Shown: positions 9,198 through 60,681 of the stretch, piece by piece
How positions within the stretch are numbered: position 1 is the first letter of the stretch
Layout of the letters: each line of letters opens with the position of its first letter
Assembly: GCA_963706025.1 (NCBI GenBank)
Contig: CAVPLM010000008.1
Location: 32,001 to 96,000, forward strand
Length of the DNA stretch: 64,000 nt
Direction: 5' to 3'
DNA from: an uncultured Actinomycetes bacterium
GTDB lineage: Bacteria > Actinomycetota > Thermoleophilia > RBG-16-64-13
Notes under the pieces: generated by a model
Seen by the model: the letters and a program-made list of their open reading frames with translations, nothing else
What the model was told of the DNA's origin: nothing
The model's database searches: none
Program-made: the position numbers and the translations under genes

Positions 9198-9287
9198 GGA
9201 GAGGTGGCAGAGCTGGTTTAATGCGGCGGTCTCGAAAACCGTTGTGCCGCGCAAGCGGTACCGGGGGTTCGAATCCCCCCCTCTCCG
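9198..9287 (+). tRNA. tRNA-Ser(CGA), CCA not encoded
   Basis: GGAGAGG/CCTCTCC acceptor stem, discriminator G, anticodon arm GCGGT-CTCGAAA-ACCGT, long variable arm GTGCCGC-GCAA-GCGGTAC, T arm GGGGG-TTCGAAT-CCCCC. Confidence 0.97.
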
Positions 9288-9476
9288 TATAGTCTTCCGC
9301 AAGAAACCACGAAGTGGCTCCCACCAAGATCTGGGGGGATTCCGAACCCGCGAGGGCGCGAGCGTCAGCGAGACAGTCCCTTTGGACTGTCGAACAGCGA
9401 GCGGTCCGAGCCGAGCCGGACGGCGAGGCAAGGACGGCAGCTTGCGCAGCAAGATGCGCGAATCCCCCCCTCTCCG
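9288..9476 (+). mobile_element. ~190 bp tRNA-linked non-coding element, copy 1
   Basis: Ends with a duplicate of the tRNA 3' 18 nt (9459-9476); contains an inverted T-arm copy (9333-9349); near-identical to 43660-43847. Confidence 0.75.
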
Positions 9477-9481
9477 CTTAG

Positions 9482-9644
9482 GAACTCGTTTCAGAACGGG
9501 GTTACGCCGACTGGGGCGTGATGGGCCAGTGCGAGGCAAGGACTAGAGGGAGCAGGCGTAGCAGCGCTACGGATGCGACCGAGGACGACGCATCGTGCCG
9601 TCCAGCGAGACCTAGGCGGCCGCAACTTCGGTCTGAACGAGTTC
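9482..9644. mobile_element. MITE-like element with terminal inverted repeats
   Basis: GAACTCGTTTCAGA (9482-9495) ... TCTGAACGAGTTC (9632-9644); interrupts CTCCGCTTAG|AAAGCCAAG, which is contiguous at 22921. Confidence 0.65.
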
Positions 9645-9647
9645 ATG

Positions 9648-9739
9648 GAAAGCCAAGAACGGCACATCGGAGCCCGGCTGATGAGGCCCGACTCTCCCGT
9701 ATTTCGGCCGAGTTCGGTGGCAAGTCGGGGGCAAACTCG
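9648..9739 (+). repeat. Post-tRNA module (spacer, degenerate hairpin, GGGGGCAA direct repeats)
   Basis: GAAAGCCAAGAACGGCA...GGCCGAGTTCGGTGGCAAGTCGGGGGCAAACTCG, matching the copies at 15461, 22931 and 31165. Confidence 0.85.
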
Positions 9740-9906
9740 TCGAGACTCATGGTAGGCAAGGGACCGAGACGGACGAGATAGCCGGAGACAGTGCACGCTC
9801 TCTCCCCGGCAGACATACTGCCGAGTGAAGGCTTAGAATGAAAGGTGGAGTGCGTGGCCTGGGGAAGCATGAGATGACAAAGCCGGCTAGAGCAAGAGGA
9901 CCTTGA

Positions 9907-10119
9907 ATGAGTCGGTCGCGACGCGCCAAGGATGATCGGATCGGTGAGTGGGCCGATCGAGTATTGACAGGCGAGGAGCCAGAGTTCCCCGACACTGACA
10001 AACAGGGCTATATGCATCGGGGCAGCTTTCTCACTGGGATGTTCGTCGGGCCCTCAGTGTTCTTTGCCGACCTGCTCTTCGGCAGTTGGTGGAAGAGACG
10101 CAGGAAGGTTGACCTCTAG
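9907..10119 (+). CDS. Small hypothetical membrane protein
   Basis: 70 aa, AGAGGA RBS, C-terminal hydrophobic stretch and basic tail. Confidence 0.5.
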   Translation: MSRSRRAKDDRIGEWADRVLTGEEPEFPDTDKQGYMHRGSFLTGMFVGPSVFFADLLFGSWWKRRRKVDL

Positions 10120-10293
10120 GTCAGGGCATCGCCGCAGCCTTTCCACGCACAGACACACTCTCGCCCCTGCCGGACATATGATGGAGTGAGCTTGACGGGA
10201 AACACTCGGCACCGGTGAGAAGGGCCGCCAGTCATGTAACGCTAGAAGGTCACTGCCAGGGTGTTACTAGTGGACCCTTGCGAGCGAGGGGGC

Positions 10294-10852
10294 ATGGTTC
10301 AAGAATCGGCCAGCCTATCGGGTGACGGACCGAGCACGGCTGCTAGCGCGGGCGTACTTGAGCGTGCCCAAGCGGAAAGCTTCGAAGAAGTAGTGGACCG
10401 ACAGGCAGAGCGCTTGGTACGCAGCCTCACCGCCATGTTTCTTGACCGTGAACTGGCAGCGGATGGAGCCCAAGATGCGTTCGTCCAACTCTACAAACAC
10501 TGGGATGACGGTTACCAAGACAGGAAGTCCAGACGCCTGGCTCTACCGAGTAGCGGTGAACTGCTGCAAGGACTACAAGTCGGCTACAGCCCGGGCTTCT
10601 CGCCTTTTCCAAAGGCTGGTCGGCGCTGGTCCGGAGCACCCAGACTATGTGGACTGGGAACCCCGGGCGGAGTTCCTGAGCGTTCTTTCCCAGCTTCCCA
10701 CCCGCCAACGCATCGCTGCCGCTCTCTACTACGACGCCGATCTCTCGGTGGCAGAGATTGCCCGGGTCATGGGGATCTCGGAAGGTTCCGTGAGCAGCCA
10801 TCTTCATCGGGCCCGCCTGGCCCTCAAAGATATTCTGGAGACGACGCGGTGA
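10294..10852 (+). CDS. ECF RNA polymerase sigma factor (one frameshift near 10510)
   Basis: ELAADGAQDAFVQLYKHW in one frame, then PDAWLYRVAVN...LPTRQR...SVAEIARVMGISEGSVSSHLHRAR in the next. Confidence 0.88.
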
Positions 10853-58661: not shown

Positions 58662-58695
58662 GGGCGAGTTCGGGGGCAACTCGGGGGCAAACTCG
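58662..58695 (+). repeat. GGGGGCAA module at the end of the duplicated unit
   Basis: GGGCGAGTTCGGGGGCAACTCGGGGGCAAACTCG, followed by GGACCGGGAC x2. Confidence 0.85.
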
Positions 58696-58771
58696 ACGGC
58701 ACTCGATGGCAGTGAACGGACCGGGACGGACCGGGACGGACGCGAAGACGCGGGATCACAGATTCGAGGCG

Positions 58772-59389
58772 CTATCTCATGTCCATCTTCTTCTCGTATC
58801 GTCTCTTGACCATGAGGCAGATCGGCGCGGGTATCGCGGGCCTGATGAAGTAGTCAACTCGTGGTGCCGAACCACCACTATTCAAGTCCGAAGCTATCGC
58901 GGCAAAGGCCCTCTTCAGCTTCAGGTCCAGGAAGGGCACCCGTTTGGTCGTCACCACGACCGGCCCGCTGGAGATGCAGACCGCGAATCTCCAGTCGAGA
59001 GAGAGCCGGCGGCAGAAATTCATCAAGACCCGGACGCATTCGCCGAATATCACCGGTCTGGGGAAACCGCAGTTCACGATCGCGTAGACCTTGGCCTCTC
59101 GCGTGTATTGTTTACCCGATCTGGTGTACGAGTAGTAGTCCTCGAGGAGCCGCATGAGCGCTCCGGGAATCGCGTATGCGTAGAGAGGGAAGACCAGGAT
59201 CAGAGCGTCGGCGGCGGCCAGTTGTCCTAGTACCTCCGACGGATAGCTCCCGTTAAGGCGTGCCTTGACAGTGACTATCGTCTTGGCGTATTCGGCGTCG
59301 GGGAGCCGACTCTCGACATCCCTTAGGAACTCGAGGGATGACGCCTTCTTGCCCCGGAGACTACCGTTTATCAGACAGATGCGTCTCAT
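58772..59389 (-). CDS. Flavodoxin-like NAD(P)H-dependent oxidoreductase
   Basis: LINGSLRGKKASS, VFPLYAYAIPG, IVNCGFP. Confidence 0.85.
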   Translation of the reverse strand: MRRICLINGSLRGKKASSLEFLRDVESRLPDAEYAKTIVTVKARLNGSYPSEVLGQLAAADALILVFPLYAYAIPGALMRLLEDYYSYTRSGKQYTREAKVYAIVNCGFPRPVIFGECVRVLMNFCRRLSLDWRFAVCISSGPVVVTTKRVPFLDLKLKRAFAAIASDLNSGGSAPRVDYFIRPAIPAPICLMVKRRYEKKMDMR

Positions 59390-59916
59390 GCCTGACCCGC
59401 GGCCAGCAGGTCTCGTCTCAGACTCTCACAGATCGCGGCGTTCTCTTCGAGGGACTGCGTGACATGGACATCGACCCTGCTATCCATCCCGGGGTGAACG
59501 ATATCTGCGCTACCACAGTGCTTGGCAGTCAGATCGATGAAGGTGCTCTTCTCCTCAGCGTCGATATCGCTGCTGCACCCGATGACTATCTGCCACGCAT
59601 GACTGCCGGTACCTCTGTCGAGGGCGTTCTTGACGGTCGAGGAGAAGTGTCCGAAGACGACCGGAGTCACAAAGACCGTCAGGCCCAACTGCTTCACGTC
59701 CCTTCTGATCTCACCCACGGCATCCTTGTTGACGCACTCCCCTCGGTGTCTTGTCGCGCAAAGGAAACAGCCAAGGCAGGGGGCCACGCGGTCTCTCTGG
59801 AGTCCGATCGCTTGAACCTGGGCGCCGTTATCCGCGAGCACCCGGGCCAAACCGGCCGTCAGGTTCTCCGACAGCTCGGTTTTGCAGTCGCTGTCTGAAA
59901 AGATGACGGCTCTCAT
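59386..59916 (-). CDS. Iron-sulfur flavoprotein-like flavodoxin
   Basis: PCLGCFLCATRHRGECVNKD, TPVVFGHFSSTVKNALDR. Confidence 0.85.
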   Translation of the reverse strand: MRAVIFSDSDCKTELSENLTAGLARVLADNGAQVQAIGLQRDRVAPCLGCFLCATRHRGECVNKDAVGEIRRDVKQLGLTVFVTPVVFGHFSSTVKNALDRGTGSHAWQIVIGCSSDIDAEEKSTFIDLTAKHCGSADIVHPGMDSRVDVHVTQSLEENAAICESLRRDLLAAGQA

Positions 59917-59960
59917 CACGACCCTCCGCGGTTCCGCTACTCCTTTGTGCACAGTCGCGG

Positions 59961-60503
59961 CTATGACCCGGCCACCAGCCGGGGCATCGCGTCCAGCGCG
60001 GCCTCCGGGGCGCGGCTGGACGGATCGTCGCGCATCATGCGGATGGCCTCTGTTCCAATTGCCATCGCGAAGACAGCCGTCATCTCGGGATCTTCCACGT
60101 GCAGTTCGCCGGCCTCGTTTCCTTGGACGATGAGGCCCTGCACCATCGGGCCGAAGACGCGCGCGTTCACCTCGGCCACGATCTCGGGCGGCTCACCGGC
60201 ATCTCGGTAGGGGTTCGCCTCGAACCCACGACGGGCGTCGGCGAAGGCGATCCTGGTCACTTCGACGATGCGGCCGAGCGCGCTCGTCTCCGTAAGCAAC
60301 GACTCCACACGCTGCCGTTGCTGCATCGCCCAGAGCTCCACCGAGGCCCGATAAATGCTTTCCTTGGTCCCGAAGTGCTCGTAGATCGTCTGCTTCGAGA
60401 TGTGCAGCGCTCGTGCCAGGTCATCCACCGATGCACGGCGGTAACCGTAGCGCAGGGCTAGTTCGCCGAACGCTGCGGCTATTTCGTCTTTCGTGGCCGG
60501 CAT
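59961..60503 (-). CDS. TetR family regulator
   Basis: GYRRASVDDLARALHISKQTIYEHFGTKE. Confidence 0.92.
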   Translation of the reverse strand: MPATKDEIAAAFGELALRYGYRRASVDDLARALHISKQTIYEHFGTKESIYRASVELWAMQQRQRVESLLTETSALGRIVEVTRIAFADARRGFEANPYRDAGEPPEIVAEVNARVFGPMVQGLIVQGNEAGELHVEDPEMTAVFAMAIGTEAIRMMRDDPSSRAPEAALDAMPRLVAGS

Positions 60504-60525
60504 ATGCCTCTCCGCTTGGCTGTAC

Positions 60526-60556
60526 TGCTGTACTCATAGAGTTCGAAAGTACAGCA
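60526..60556. promoter_or_regulatory. Putative TetR operator
   Basis: TGCTGTACT-N13-AGTACAGCA inverted repeat just upstream of tetR. Confidence 0.55.
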
Positions 60557-60641
60557 TAGTCTCCTTCACGAGGTAAGTCAAGGGATTACTGGCCTCCCGT
60601 CGGAGAGGCACTCAGCGCCTCGCGGCCACGGCGTTGAGAAC

Positions 60642-60681
60642 CCGCGCAATCGGTACCGGGGGTTCGAATCCCCCCGCTTCG
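60642..60681 (+). repeat. Degenerate tRNA-Ser 3' fragment
   Basis: CCGCGCAATCGGTACCGGGGGTTCGAATCCCCCCGCTTCG. Confidence 0.85.

Follow-up and report, generated by a model that had tools for sequence, protein, structure and literature searches.

Organization of the locus

The window, i.e., the whole 64,000-nt stretch analysed here, lies on a 213-kb contig of a metagenome-assembled genome (estimated contamination: 7.3%). It contains one tRNA, a tRNA-Ser(CGA) found on the + strand by ARAGORN and, concordantly, by Rfam. A repeat search gives a direct-repeat family of 10 copies at 9247, 15415, 22886, 25963, 31115, 40340, 43619, 47307, 55701 and 60642, the most diverged of which (47307) has 61% identity with the reference copy. 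Two additional short tRNA fragments are localized at 9459-9484 and 43831-43898. The repeats are co-oriented and their abundance is well past chance; a 24-nt pattern of the T-arm and acceptor end (up to 3 mismatches) has 6 matches, all on the + strand, vs. 0.00 expected from 100 shuffles. The intact tRNA and the nine same-strand 3' fragments of the original prediction are confirmed at the places it named (ARAGORN, Rfam and repeat search).

Roughly half of the fragments are part of a longer conserved unit, in which the tRNA 3' part is followed by a spacer, a hairpin and a pair of 10-bp direct repeats set 11 bp apart. The spacer, hairpin and direct-repeat motif extends the copies near 9650, 15415, 22886, 25963 and 31115 (n=5), while the hairpin and direct repeats are found with no tRNA fragment at 14321, 19205, 30518, 35781 and 58660 (n=5). 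An additional unit scrap is present at 34981-35023.

9197-9288, + strand: intact tRNA-Ser(CGA), array head and attB/attL target (ARAGORN; Rfam RF00005, 58 bits)
9252-9484, + strand: mini-module of 230 bp, i.e., tRNA 3' part, about 170 nt and the short fragment 9459-9484, which begins within the T-loop (repeat search)
9647-9774, + strand: partial unit with spacer, hairpin and direct-repeat pair TCGGTGGCAAG / TCGGGGGCAAA (nhmmer model positions 58-176)
14321-14418, + strand: hairpin and direct repeats, tRNA fragment absent (nhmmer model positions 81-177)
15409-15583, + strand: full unit with fragment from about tRNA position 50, spacer, hairpin and repeat pair (model positions 7-180)
19205-19286, + strand: hairpin and direct repeats, tRNA fragment absent (nhmmer model positions 79-161)
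22877-23051, + strand: full unit, fragment from about tRNA position 44 (model positions 4-182)
25953-26130, + strand: full unit, fragment from about tRNA position 37, immediately past the anticodon (repeat search, unit HMM)
31112-31264, + strand: full unit, fragment beginning near the start of the T-stem (repeat search, unit HMM)
35781-35869, + strand: partial unit with hairpin and a single repeat (unit HMM)
40329-40385, + strand: tRNA fragment alone, starting near position 37; neither hairpin nor repeats follow (repeat search, unit HMM)
43624-43898, + strand: fragment, 170-nt mini-module, short fragment and hairpin (repeat search, unit HMM)
47307-47368, + strand: diverged tRNA fragment, T-arm only (repeat search, 61%; 21 nt at 95%)
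55700-55740, + strand: tRNA fragment alone (24-nt pattern, repeat search, unit HMM)
60641-60686, + strand: tRNA fragment alone (repeat search, unit HMM)

Near-identical copies of the 9252-9484 mini-module are found at 43624-43849 and on contig C11. The fragments start at no fewer than 7 distinct tRNA positions (about 37, 44, 50-52, 55, 59-62 and within the T-loop), and all of them contain the stretch from the T-loop to the 3' end. Such varied 5' ends argue for independent elements with differing attP homology, since the amplification of a single repeat would not yield them. Units are complete in the proximal part (9.6-31 kb) and diverged or reduced to the fragment in the distal part (40-61 kb), as expected if tRNA-distal insertions are older and were displaced outward. 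The variable region runs on past the window, at least up to contig position 145 kb.

The conserved unit

A comparison of 137 units shows the arm, i.e., hairpin plus repeat pair, to be conserved to the same degree as the tRNA part; units are about 80-90% alike and co-oriented. A terminator scan did not call the unit hairpin, the folding energy of which is unexceptional in 4 of the 5 units folded. No copy of the repeat motif was found upstream of the fragments (P-arm side). Among 16 loci of this family that combine a tRNA and an integrase, 13 have a 9-mer repeated at exactly 11 bp, starting 50-85 nt past the tRNA end; the controls give a mean of 0.05 of 16 (shuffles) and 0 of 16 (other offset in the real sequences). 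The repeat sequence varies with the tRNA and the integrase: G076, the integrase of which is 65% identical, has TGGTGACAT twice where the window carries TCGGGGGCAA twice. In related genomes, the layout of tRNA, hairpin, 11-bp-spaced repeat pair and convergent integrase recurs at many tRNAs. Since this layout recurs with a repeat sequence that differs per integrase, the unit is best read as an attL/attP arm.

Cargo of the array

Over 50 kb of ordinary accessory genes follow the tRNA. The Pfam scan took in 40 of the 47 predicted ORFs of 9.2-60.7 kb; of these 47, 22 are on the + strand and 25 on the − strand. None of those scanned has a domain of integrase, phage, conjugation or replication type.

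10261-13545, + strand: ECF-type sigma factor in two overlapping frames, then two overlapping long ORFs with no family match
13817-14304, + strand: ABM monooxygenase module with its own hairpin; in G003:C8 at 80.5% nt identity
14508-14990, − strand: SRPBCC / polyketide-cyclase-like protein
16357-19207, + strand: module with TetR, an unknown ORF, a flavodoxin-like protein and AhpC/redoxin
19400-22860, + strand: module with ECF sigma, a BNR-repeat protein and a SnoaL-like protein
23222-25705, − strand: P-type cation ATPase
26266-29542, unstranded: radical SAM/SPASM protein, unknown ORF and alpha/beta hydrolase; blocks common to G002 and G003
29561-30562, − strand: DUF1295 module, ending in a direct-repeat pair
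30529-31120, unstranded: 590-nt module, from direct repeats to the next fragment
32029-35712, unstranded: amine oxidase, DUF6504, STAS-gene module, GNAT
35917-40327, unstranded: DUF58 and DUF4129 module; in G001:C6 at 94.4% nt identity
40488-43465, unstranded: saccharopine dehydrogenase and amino-acid permease; in G003:C8 at 93.9% nt identity
43912-46670, − strand: NifU-like protein, class-V aminotransferase (cysteine-desulfurase type) and DsrE-like protein; in G001:C6 at 95.1% nt identity
46688-47227, − strand: methyltransferase, common to G001, G002 and G003
47732-55679, unstranded: MMPL transporter, MFS transporter, ThrE exporter, STAS protein and two unknown ORFs
55770-60503, − strand: cyclase, methyltransferase, DUF1295 duplicate with repeat pair (58660-58722), two FMN reductases and TetR

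The block earlier named a MoxR operon was seen to hold DUF58 and DUF4129 genes. Two modules are duplicated within the window: DUF1295 (57704-58704, 98.7% nt identity) and the STAS gene (34499-34942 and 53094-53537). A 450-bp single-gene ABM module at 61799-62251 has identical ends in G001 (two copies) and G003.

Integrases in the genome and its relatives

A six-frame search for PF00589, extended beyond the 64 kb, gives 8 matches in the genome and none on the contig of the window; the array is thus free of integrase genes, as had been claimed. By tblastn (E≤1), neither an integrase gene nor a scrap of one was found on the whole 213-kb contig or on contig C7. In relatives, a clade of tyrosine integrases specific to this tRNA and unit is found downstream of tRNA-Ser(CGA) plus unit, at a distance of 2-5 kb and in convergent orientation (G064/L047, L048/G062, G072 and G076), which supports the claim that the fragments are att-type scars of insertion at the tRNA. 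No intact integrase of this clade was found in the genome of the window or in the same-genus genome G003, thus a present-day expansion of the array, as announced by the original prediction, lacks support.

Integrase remains of this clade lie inside the same-genus array G001:C6, namely a pseudogene with 72% identity and one TGA, and a scrap of the N-terminus. Some modules at least thus came from integrase-bearing elements; the claim of non-autonomous mini-elements holds for the present integrase-less state of the modules but not for the origin of these. The unit-richest genomes have no intact matching integrase (none in G000 and G003, the pseudogene only in G001), and the fetched stretches of the two genomes with an intact copy contain only 1 and 2 units. 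Of the 80 metagenome loci analysed, 7 have integrase matches beside units, 3 of which are scraps of at most 45 aa. The search for an attR at the loci of G072 and G076 that carry the integrase was negative. Pfam gives no arm-binding domain in the N-terminal ~65 aa of the G076 integrase, the region we take to have the arm-binding role.

Distribution

Genome-wide, the unit HMM has 51 matches distributed over 7 contigs; the window accounts for 17 of these. Fragments thus do occur elsewhere in the genome, which by the standard of the original prediction itself counts in part against it; their orientation is uniform within each cluster. Units and modules of the Ser(CGA) type are also localized inside islands at tRNA-Met, tRNA-Leu(TAA) and tRNA-Ser(TGA) of the same genome.

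Similar arrays are headed by tRNA-Ser(CGA) in at least 4 genera of uncultured Thermoleophilia-like Actinomycetota. Those of G007, G011, G019 and contig C7 start with this tRNA plus unit, and the upstream flank in G007 and G011 is syntenic with that of the window. At least 6 unit matches are found in 9 of the 41 genomes searched, and arrays in 77 of the 80 metagenome loci.

Neither an excision product nor an empty site was seen in assembled contigs of public runs, no circular form among the 80 metagenome loci, and no match of the repeat pattern in viral contigs. In two public runs, contigs connect 9678 directly with 14342, and the stretch in between is almost uncovered in these runs; one side of this joint is 29 nt long and lies in a repeat. 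Public-run contigs also contain chimeric unit joints, from 15481 to 22954.

Module shuffling

Same-genus genomes share cargo modules with the window in a different order. The cassette-wise variation that had been anticipated among relatives is thus observed: presence, order and, once, orientation differ. Some shared modules are 93-95.6% identical (nt) vs. 82-89% for the flanking core. The 16357-19207 module is present in G003:C8 at 89% nt identity, inverted relative to the units. The SnoaL module (19400-22860) is common to G001:C6 (88% nt identity) and partly to contig C7 (86%). Its right end and the start of the fragment are conserved between the window and C7 and the sequence differs past the fragment 3' end, i.e., an attR pattern.

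The 590-nt module occurs twice in G003, fused directly to the end of a tRNA fragment, and the end of the DUF58/DUF4129 module coincides exactly with the start of the next fragment. Many boundaries are outside the tRNA fragment, past the direct repeats or at hairpin-only units, sharp module ends also exist at sites with no adjoining unit, and identical cargo is flanked differently from genome to genome. The boundaries outside fragments and the inverted module indicate that recombination besides integrase action at the tRNA reshaped the array.

Comparison with known systems

The CIME definition and the accretion model, as set out in the text available for PMC5704250, match the array. Shared with such systems, e.g., ICESt1-related elements of Streptococcus thermophilus and Streptomyces pathogenicity islands, are (i) integration at the 3' end of a tRNA; (ii) decayed or integrase-less elements with att sites at both sides; (iii) newcomers inserting at the regenerated target, which gives tandems. 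The present array differs in being far denser (11 fragments and 17 unit matches in 52 kb; 36 units in the array of one fetched relative), in its modules of down to 0.45-3 kb, in a contig free of any transfer or integration gene, in half-units with no tRNA part and in arrays nested in islands at other tRNAs.

Elements in tandem and partial tRNAs dispersed over the island also characterize the tycheposon-bearing tRNA islands of Prochlorococcus (bioRxiv 10.1101/2020.12.28.424599). As far as the accessible part of that source goes, they are flexible and tRNA-proximal, with older elements driven inward by successive integrations, and also have fragmented integrases and niche-adaptive cargo. However, tycheposons have their own tyrosine recombinase and a replication module, neither of which is in the window, and the host here belongs to the Actinomycetota.

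The likeness to integrons is a one-ended array of small gene modules between repeated recombination-type sites, with module-wise variation among relatives. In contrast, no intI adjoins the array, the repeated site is tRNA-derived and sequence-conserved with no attC palindrome, and genes are on both strands. Every integron-defining feature tested fails, thus the qualification as integron-like is rejected. The sole integron-integrase gene of the genome is N-terminally truncated and on another contig, with no attC-like sites near it.

As in a lambda-type attP, short direct repeats at helical-turn spacing lie at a fixed distance from the core, between core and int, and their sequence tracks the integrase. 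The repeats would be bound as arm sites; however, they were seen on one side only.

Origin of the array

The observation of the original prediction thus stands and its interpretation is partly supported. From the anatomy of the array, its distribution across the lineage, the shuffling and the integrase association in relatives, all observed directly, the likely explanation is a flexible genomic island at tRNA-Ser(CGA) that arose as small integrative elements of a single family inserted site-specifically, one after the other, through a tyrosine integrase, and that was later reshuffled. Each insertion would recombine within the tRNA, restore it using the element's own copy and shift the previous tRNA end downstream, where it stays as a scar; the sequence conserved past the tRNA end would be the attP-derived arm of the element. 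The stretch common to all fragments points to a crossover in the T-loop, with the anticodon loop as a possible site for some elements. The unit hairpin is probably the tRNA terminator, and the two 10-bp direct repeats are probably arm-type integrase-binding sites. As the modules of the window have no integrase of their own, they fit the definition of CIMEs (cis-mobilizable elements) and are best read as now integrase-less and CIME-like; their integrase genes would have been lost or never there, and they may be mobilised in trans. Reshuffling by recombination in or beside the units would have led to duplication, deletion, interspecies exchange and one inversion. The process itself is known; its density with no integrase gene at all is unusual and extreme.

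Several observations count against serial insertion: (i) ten decayed autonomous elements ought to leave integrase traces, and the contig has none; (ii) the 5 hairpin/repeat units with no tRNA part are not obtainable from a crossover inside the tRNA; (iii) P-arm-side repeats, an attR in G072 and G076, a terminator call for the hairpin and an excision product or empty site in public-run contigs were not found; (iv) cargo boundaries lie past the repeats, and one module is inverted in G003; (v) integrases are rare beside metagenome units, and unit-rich genomes have no intact matching one.

The integrase-free contig and the rarity of integrases beside units are consistent with modules that were non-autonomous from birth, with an integrase acting in trans to excise them and place them at the tRNA time and again; the array would then be an integron-like library of cassettes, active and still expanding. 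This is rather unlikely, though small modules such as ABM 61799-62251 keep the same ends in G001 (twice) and G003, each proximal module retains a complete arm conserved like the tRNA part, some modules are closer between species than the core flank, units inside the islands at other tRNAs suggest a vehicle and, weakly, 9678 is joined to 14342. Nevertheless, the supposed integrase has no intact copy in the window's genome, G003 or the array-rich genomes, the pseudogenes of G001 indicate autonomous ancestry, and the P-arm side with no repeat motif means that modules carry no full lambda-type attP. Moreover, the same cargo has differing flanks between genomes, unlike clean site-specific transfer, no circle was found among the 80 metagenome loci, and viral contigs gave no match of the repeat pattern.

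Still less likely are a few founding integrase events followed by growth and shuffling mainly through RecA-type homologous recombination between the 140-180-bp units, where a unit-by-unit crossover would form a circle of one unit plus cargo that re-inserts at any unit, whether in its own genome or in that of a relative. The likeness and co-orientation of the units, the boundaries at varying points within or beside them, the chimeric joints and a recombinase that is dispensable, in line with its absence, are consistent with it. However, the diverse fragment 5' ends require independent attP-type events, sharp module ends exist with no neighbouring unit, the G003 inversion is left unaccounted for, and recombination on direct repeats is expected mostly to delete.

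It is very improbable that the units, rather than being recombination scars, spread by themselves as a small tRNA-derived repeat (REP/MITE-like) or result from faulty assembly or binning: units do occur on 7 contigs of a partly contaminated assembly, but they are clustered and co-oriented rather than dispersed, no Y1/RAYT transposase was found in the 5 genomes searched for it, and arrays recur in most metagenome loci and in independent genomes, e.g., within a 3.56-Mb contig of G007 (9 contigs).

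Results

tRNA-Ser(CGA) and its fragments

The sole tRNA gene of the window is tRNA-Ser(CGA) (9197-9288, + strand), and Rfam at gathering thresholds finds nothing else there. The 24-nt pattern made of its T-arm and acceptor end, with ≤3 mismatches allowed, has 6 matches, all on the + strand, for 0.00 expected from shuffled sequences. A gap-free repeat search gives a direct family of ten copies (9247, 15415, 22886, 25963, 31115, 40340, 43619, 47307, 55701 and 60642), in which all nine fragment places of the original prediction are recovered. At 9459-9484 and 43831-43898 there are two extra short tRNA fragments. 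When 11 copies are aligned, the columns that do not vary fall in the 3' acceptor strand and in the T-loop. The 5' ends vary (just past the anticodon, in the variable arm, in the T-stem and, once, inside the T-loop) while every fragment, whatever its start point, reaches the 3' end of the tRNA. The window thus has a feature of accretion islands, i.e., an intact target tRNA at one end and, at the module borders, direct repeats of its 3' part that all point the same way.

Immediately upstream of the tRNA is a PIN-domain gene (8647-9066), whose position is kept on contig C7 of the same MAG and in the genomes of the same genus (70-77% nucleotide identity).

The conserved unit

About half of the fragments extend into a longer conserved unit, absent from the original description. 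Its parts are:

Part 1: 3' part of the tRNA
Part 2: spacer, CTTnnGAAAGCCAAGAAnGGC
Part 3: G+C hairpin, then TTTTCGCGTCTT
Part 4: GGCGAGTTC
Part 5: two 10-bp direct repeats, 11 bp apart (TCGGGGGCAAG TCGGGGGCAAA), and a purine-rich tail

A profile made from four window units with one iteration was searched in G000 (the MAG that contains the window) and in fetched arrays of relatives. It finds 137 copies in all, 51 of them in G000, including 17 in the window. Conservation of the repeat pair over these 137 copies equals that of the tRNA part; in the hairpin, the stems are kept and the loop varies. Three forms occur: (i) full units; (ii) fragments only; (iii) hairpin and repeats without fragment. 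In the window, full units are proximal (9.6-31 kb) and the distal borders (40-61 kb) consist of fragments alone or of diverged copies.

The hairpin may be a terminator, a role that can only be proposed since the consensus terminator scan does not call the unit hairpins and folding is mostly unexceptional (1 of 5 units better than its own shuffles at |z| > 3). Terminator-like sites in 9.0-28.9 kb are at shuffle level (13 vs 13.1). No repeat motif is found on the P-arm side of the fragments, and the repeat pattern has zero matches in viral contigs.

Direct repeats as candidate arm sites

A 9-mer repeated at exactly 11 bp and starting 50-85 nt past the tRNA end is found in 13 of 16 tRNA + integrase loci of the same bacterial family (shuffle mean 0.05 of 16; another offset in the real sequences, 0 of 16). 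The pair is usually located between a hairpin and a convergent integrase gene, whose 3' end it precedes. This tRNA-hairpin-repeat-integrase layout, with repeats of 9-10 bp at +59 to +72, is seen at loci L022-L031, L072-L078 and L081-L083 of relatives and, in G000, at C5:692300-692514 and C10:38884-39122. The sequence of the repeat changes with the tRNA and the integrase:

tRNA-Phe locus: TGCCAACG
tRNA-Cys locus: TTGCCGTCC
tRNA-SeC locus: TTTGGCACC
Second tRNA-Ser(CGA) integrase: TGCCGCACG
tRNA-Ser(CGA) of G076 (a relative), also tRNA-Leu(TAA) of G000: TGGTGACAT
Candidate arm-site pairs: TCGGGGGCAA twice; TGGTGACAT twice

Lambda-type integrases bind arm-type sites in the P' arm of attP, and the repeats are read on that basis. 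By this analogy, the 11-bp-spaced repeats behave as putative arm-type integrase-binding sites of an attP P' arm. Since they track tRNA and integrase as arm sites do, the window unit is best interpreted as the attL-side arm belonging to a single family of elements.

Cargo of the window

Between 9.2 and 60.7 kb, 47 ORFs are predicted (22 on the + strand, 25 on the - strand). The Pfam scan took in 40 of them; those left out (15369, 22655, 31723, 35945, 46281, 53857 and 57711) include one spurious ORF over a unit, one duplicate and two searched via PHROGs only. The cargo comprises ECF sigma factors, TetR regulators, redox enzymes, a P-type ATPase, a radical-SAM protein and methyltransferases, together with MMPL, MFS and ThrE transporters, NifU-like, NifS-like and DsrE proteins, DUF58 and DUF4129 proteins, and others. 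For ten ORFs of unknown function PHROGs gives one weak match, itself of unknown function, and NCBIfam adds nothing to the unknown ORFs.

No recombinase, phage, transfer or replication domain is found in the 40 scanned ORFs, and the six-frame search with PF00589 has 0 matches on C8, the 213-kb contig of the window (8 in G000 overall). The earlier claim of an array devoid of recombinase is confirmed to this extent. Fragments or units flank the modules on both sides and the scanned ORFs lack mobility domains, as in CIMEs.

In the module closest to the tRNA, the ECF sigma gene is in two overlapping frames (10261-10968 and 10442-10852), as is the long ORF behind it (10995-12383 and 11980-13545); this points to frameshifts, due either to pseudogenes or to consensus errors.

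Distribution in the genome and in the lineage

Beyond C8, co-oriented clusters of fragments are present on contigs C7, C5, C10, C18, C11 and C3 of G000. The C7 cluster is headed by a second tRNA-Ser(CGA) and the C5 cluster is embedded in a 1.2-Mb contig. Orientation is common within clusters, but the fragments are not restricted to one array. Three clusters sit inside islands of other tRNAs, and these islands possess integrase remnants and tRNA fragments of their own:

C18:5980-21452, tRNA-Met island: own fragment 21409-21452; truncated integrase 15757-16371
C5:665684-692514, tRNA-Leu(TAA) island: own fragments at 681.5, 680.0, 678.0 and 665.7 kb; integrase remnant by the 678.0-kb fragment
C10:28454-39122, tRNA-Ser(TGA) island: own fragment 28482-28454; integrase remnant 28118-28240
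C10:35525-35446, near-full pseudo tRNA-Ser(CGA) within the tRNA-Ser(TGA) island

These islands carry Ser(CGA)-type units and modules, i.e., arrays nested in other elements. As G000 (92% complete) has an estimated contamination of 7.3%, some clusters could stem from a co-binned relative.

The pair tRNA-Ser(gct) + tRNA-Arg(acg) occurs twice in G000 (C22:28-201, at a contig end, and C8:7381-7554), which fits a strain duplication in a MAG with this estimated contamination.

The unit query has matches in 31 of 41 relatives' genomes, many via the tRNA gene alone, and at least 6 matches in 9 of the 41. Arrays headed by tRNA-Ser(CGA) + unit exist in three other genera (G007, G011 and G019). The upstream flank of the G007 and G011 arrays is syntenic with that of the window, and the G007 array is embedded in a 3.56-Mb contig. 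In the same-genus genome G001, contig C6 has 36 units within 91 kb. The repeat pattern occurs in records whose titles name uncultured MAGs of Actinomycetota, Thermoleophilia or Gaiellales. Among the 80 metagenome loci listed of 88 reported (L085-L164), 77 have units and 16 have the tRNA. A search of full texts returns no description of such arrays in Thermoleophilia or Gaiellales.

Variation of modules and their boundaries

Same-genus arrays and the window have many cargo blocks in common (74-96% nucleotide identity) in a changed order, and the TetR-to-AhpC module (16357-19207) is inverted in the same-genus genome G003. None of the window cargo ORFs has a match in the G007 array. Module content and order thus differ between related MAGs and are not collinear, in agreement with the cassette-wise variation predicted. 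The core flank is 82-89% identical to that of the same-genus genomes and several modules reach 93-95.6%; such identities suggest, but do not prove, that modules were exchanged more recently. The variable region does not stop at the window edge but extends to contig position 145 kb or further.

For the MoxR-type block, the right cargo end is the start of the next fragment. For the SnoaL block, the cargo and the 5' part of the fragment are common to the window and C7, and the sequence past the fragment differs; this break is the signature of an attR. Left cargo ends are often just past the repeat pair. A given cargo may come after a full unit in one genome and after a bare tRNA end or hairpin in others. 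Recent internal duplications of 1 kb (98.7%) and 444 bp (99.3%) have sharp ends and no common motif.

Public runs were considered as assembled contigs with joints in repeats. Joints from 9245-9250 to 22896-22899 are many, with other letters between the two sides, and are read as serine tRNAs of other organisms; other joints are within units, with sides of 19-54 nt. The contigs show neither a circle junction nor a clean empty site. In two runs 10.3-13.7 kb lacks cover and a single contig per run joins 9678 to 14342, which lends weak support to module-wise polymorphism.

Integrases and other recombinases

In some relatives, a clade of tyrosine integrases (Phage_integrase and N-terminal SAM-like domains) is found convergent with, and 2-5 kb downstream of, tRNA-Ser(CGA) + unit, which by position is their candidate target:

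L047/G064: cut by contig end
L048/G062: truncated
G072: 377 aa
G076: 384 aa

The recombinase proposed to act in trans has a candidate counterpart in relatives, but no intact member of the clade is present in G000. At E≤1e-40 none is found in G000 or G003, and tblastn with three integrases of the clade gives nothing on C8 and C7 even at E≤1. The G001 array contains a clade pseudogene with one TGA (72% identity) and a scrap of 88 aa (83% identity). In metagenome contigs an integrase beside units is rare (7 of 80 loci, 3 of these being scraps ≤45 aa). A search around the integrase-bearing G072 and G076 loci finds no attR fragment; at G072, DUF2958 is the sole Pfam match on 10 ORFs.

Serine recombinases (PF00239) are not found in G000; G001, G003 and G007 have one each, all distant from arrays. 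These apart, the recombinases of G003, which has arrays, are only 2 Xer-like ones. The C18 integrase is rejected as the tRNA-Ser agent, its clade in relatives adjoining tRNA-Met, Phe, Glu and Lys and not tRNA-Ser.

A small Xer-like tyrosine recombinase (216-aa ORF) lies between units of the same-genus array L004 (G001:C6), at 6370-7020. The window lacks a counterpart of it, and metagenome locus L154 has a 40-aa scrap at 72.5% identity.

Discussion

Comparison with integrons and Tycheposons

The label «integron-like» is not retained. Integron boundaries are attC sites (imperfect palindromes bearing RYYYAAC / GTTRRRY cores), whereas those of the window are tRNA-derived, sequence-conserved units. 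Integron cassettes are co-oriented behind a common promoter, whereas the window has genes on both strands and one of its modules is inverted in another genome. No intI (attI) is beside the array, C8 being free of PF00589 matches. Integron integrases are unusual in Actinomycetota. The sole one of G000 (C3:452227-452940; TIGR02249, 321.6 bits, model positions 101-315) is truncated, with about the first 100 residues missing, and a regex search about 12 kb either side of it finds no attC-like palindrome pairs. It is therefore rejected as a trans factor, the more so as G003 has arrays and lacks it. Tycheposons, as outlined in 10.1101/2020.12.28.424599, carry their own tyrosine recombinase and a replication module (primase/helicase); neither is found in the scanned window ORFs.

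Origin of the arrays

The most economical account is serial insertion followed by integrase loss and reshuffling. Elements would insert serially and site-specifically at tRNA-Ser(CGA), older ones would be displaced distally by newer insertions, integrases would then be lost and modules reshuffled. Serial insertion at this tRNA agrees with the CIME definition and accretion scheme as summarized in PMC5704250, and with the growth of Prochlorococcus tRNA islands as outlined in 10.1101/2020.12.28.424599. The window locus is a known process in an extreme, integrase-less and lineage-wide form.

Homologous recombination between units probably contributes to the arrays, though it cannot explain the varied fragment ends. 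The original idea, i.e., a visiting integrase that moves the modules, be it in cis or in trans, is less probable. In its favour are the clean lack of integrase remnants, small modules whose ends are reproducible, and the well-kept arms; array-rich genomes without the integrase, integrase pseudogenes inside an array, a P-arm side lacking a repeat motif, and flanks of a given cargo that differ between genomes argue against it. A further step, judged rather improbable, is a communal cassette pool landing at tRNA-Ser(CGA), in which integrase-less modules with a complete arm would be moved by integrase-encoding visitors or inside islands of other tRNAs. If true, this would be an integron-like gene capture with a recombinase that is mobile in its own right and missing in most cases. 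Neither a REP/MITE-type repeat nor an assembly artefact is a likely explanation; as to the former, the copies form co-oriented clusters and are not dispersed, and the Y1/RAYT transposase (PF01797) is found in 0 of 5 genomes.

If serial insertion and integrase loss hold, one tRNA gene gathers a large share of the flexible genes in an uncultured, little-known soil/sediment lineage, and regulators, transporters, redox and metal functions are small exchangeable modules at that tRNA. Current ideas are not overturned, as the literature already covers accretion, CIMEs and tRNA islands in which partial tRNAs are scattered. The arrays offer a natural series for (i) the growth and decay of tRNA islands; (ii) the persistence of integrase-less modules as mobile units. 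The regular layout and the integrase-dependent repeats lead to testable predictions of arm sites for a dozen integrase/tRNA pairs.

A 230-bp piece (a tRNA fragment, 170 nt and a short fragment) occurs in the window at 9252-9478 and 43624-43849 and in G000 at C11:71927-72158, with 96-99% identity. The region of the C11 unit is itself non-syntenic in relatives. The piece looks like an almost empty element, with att sites only.
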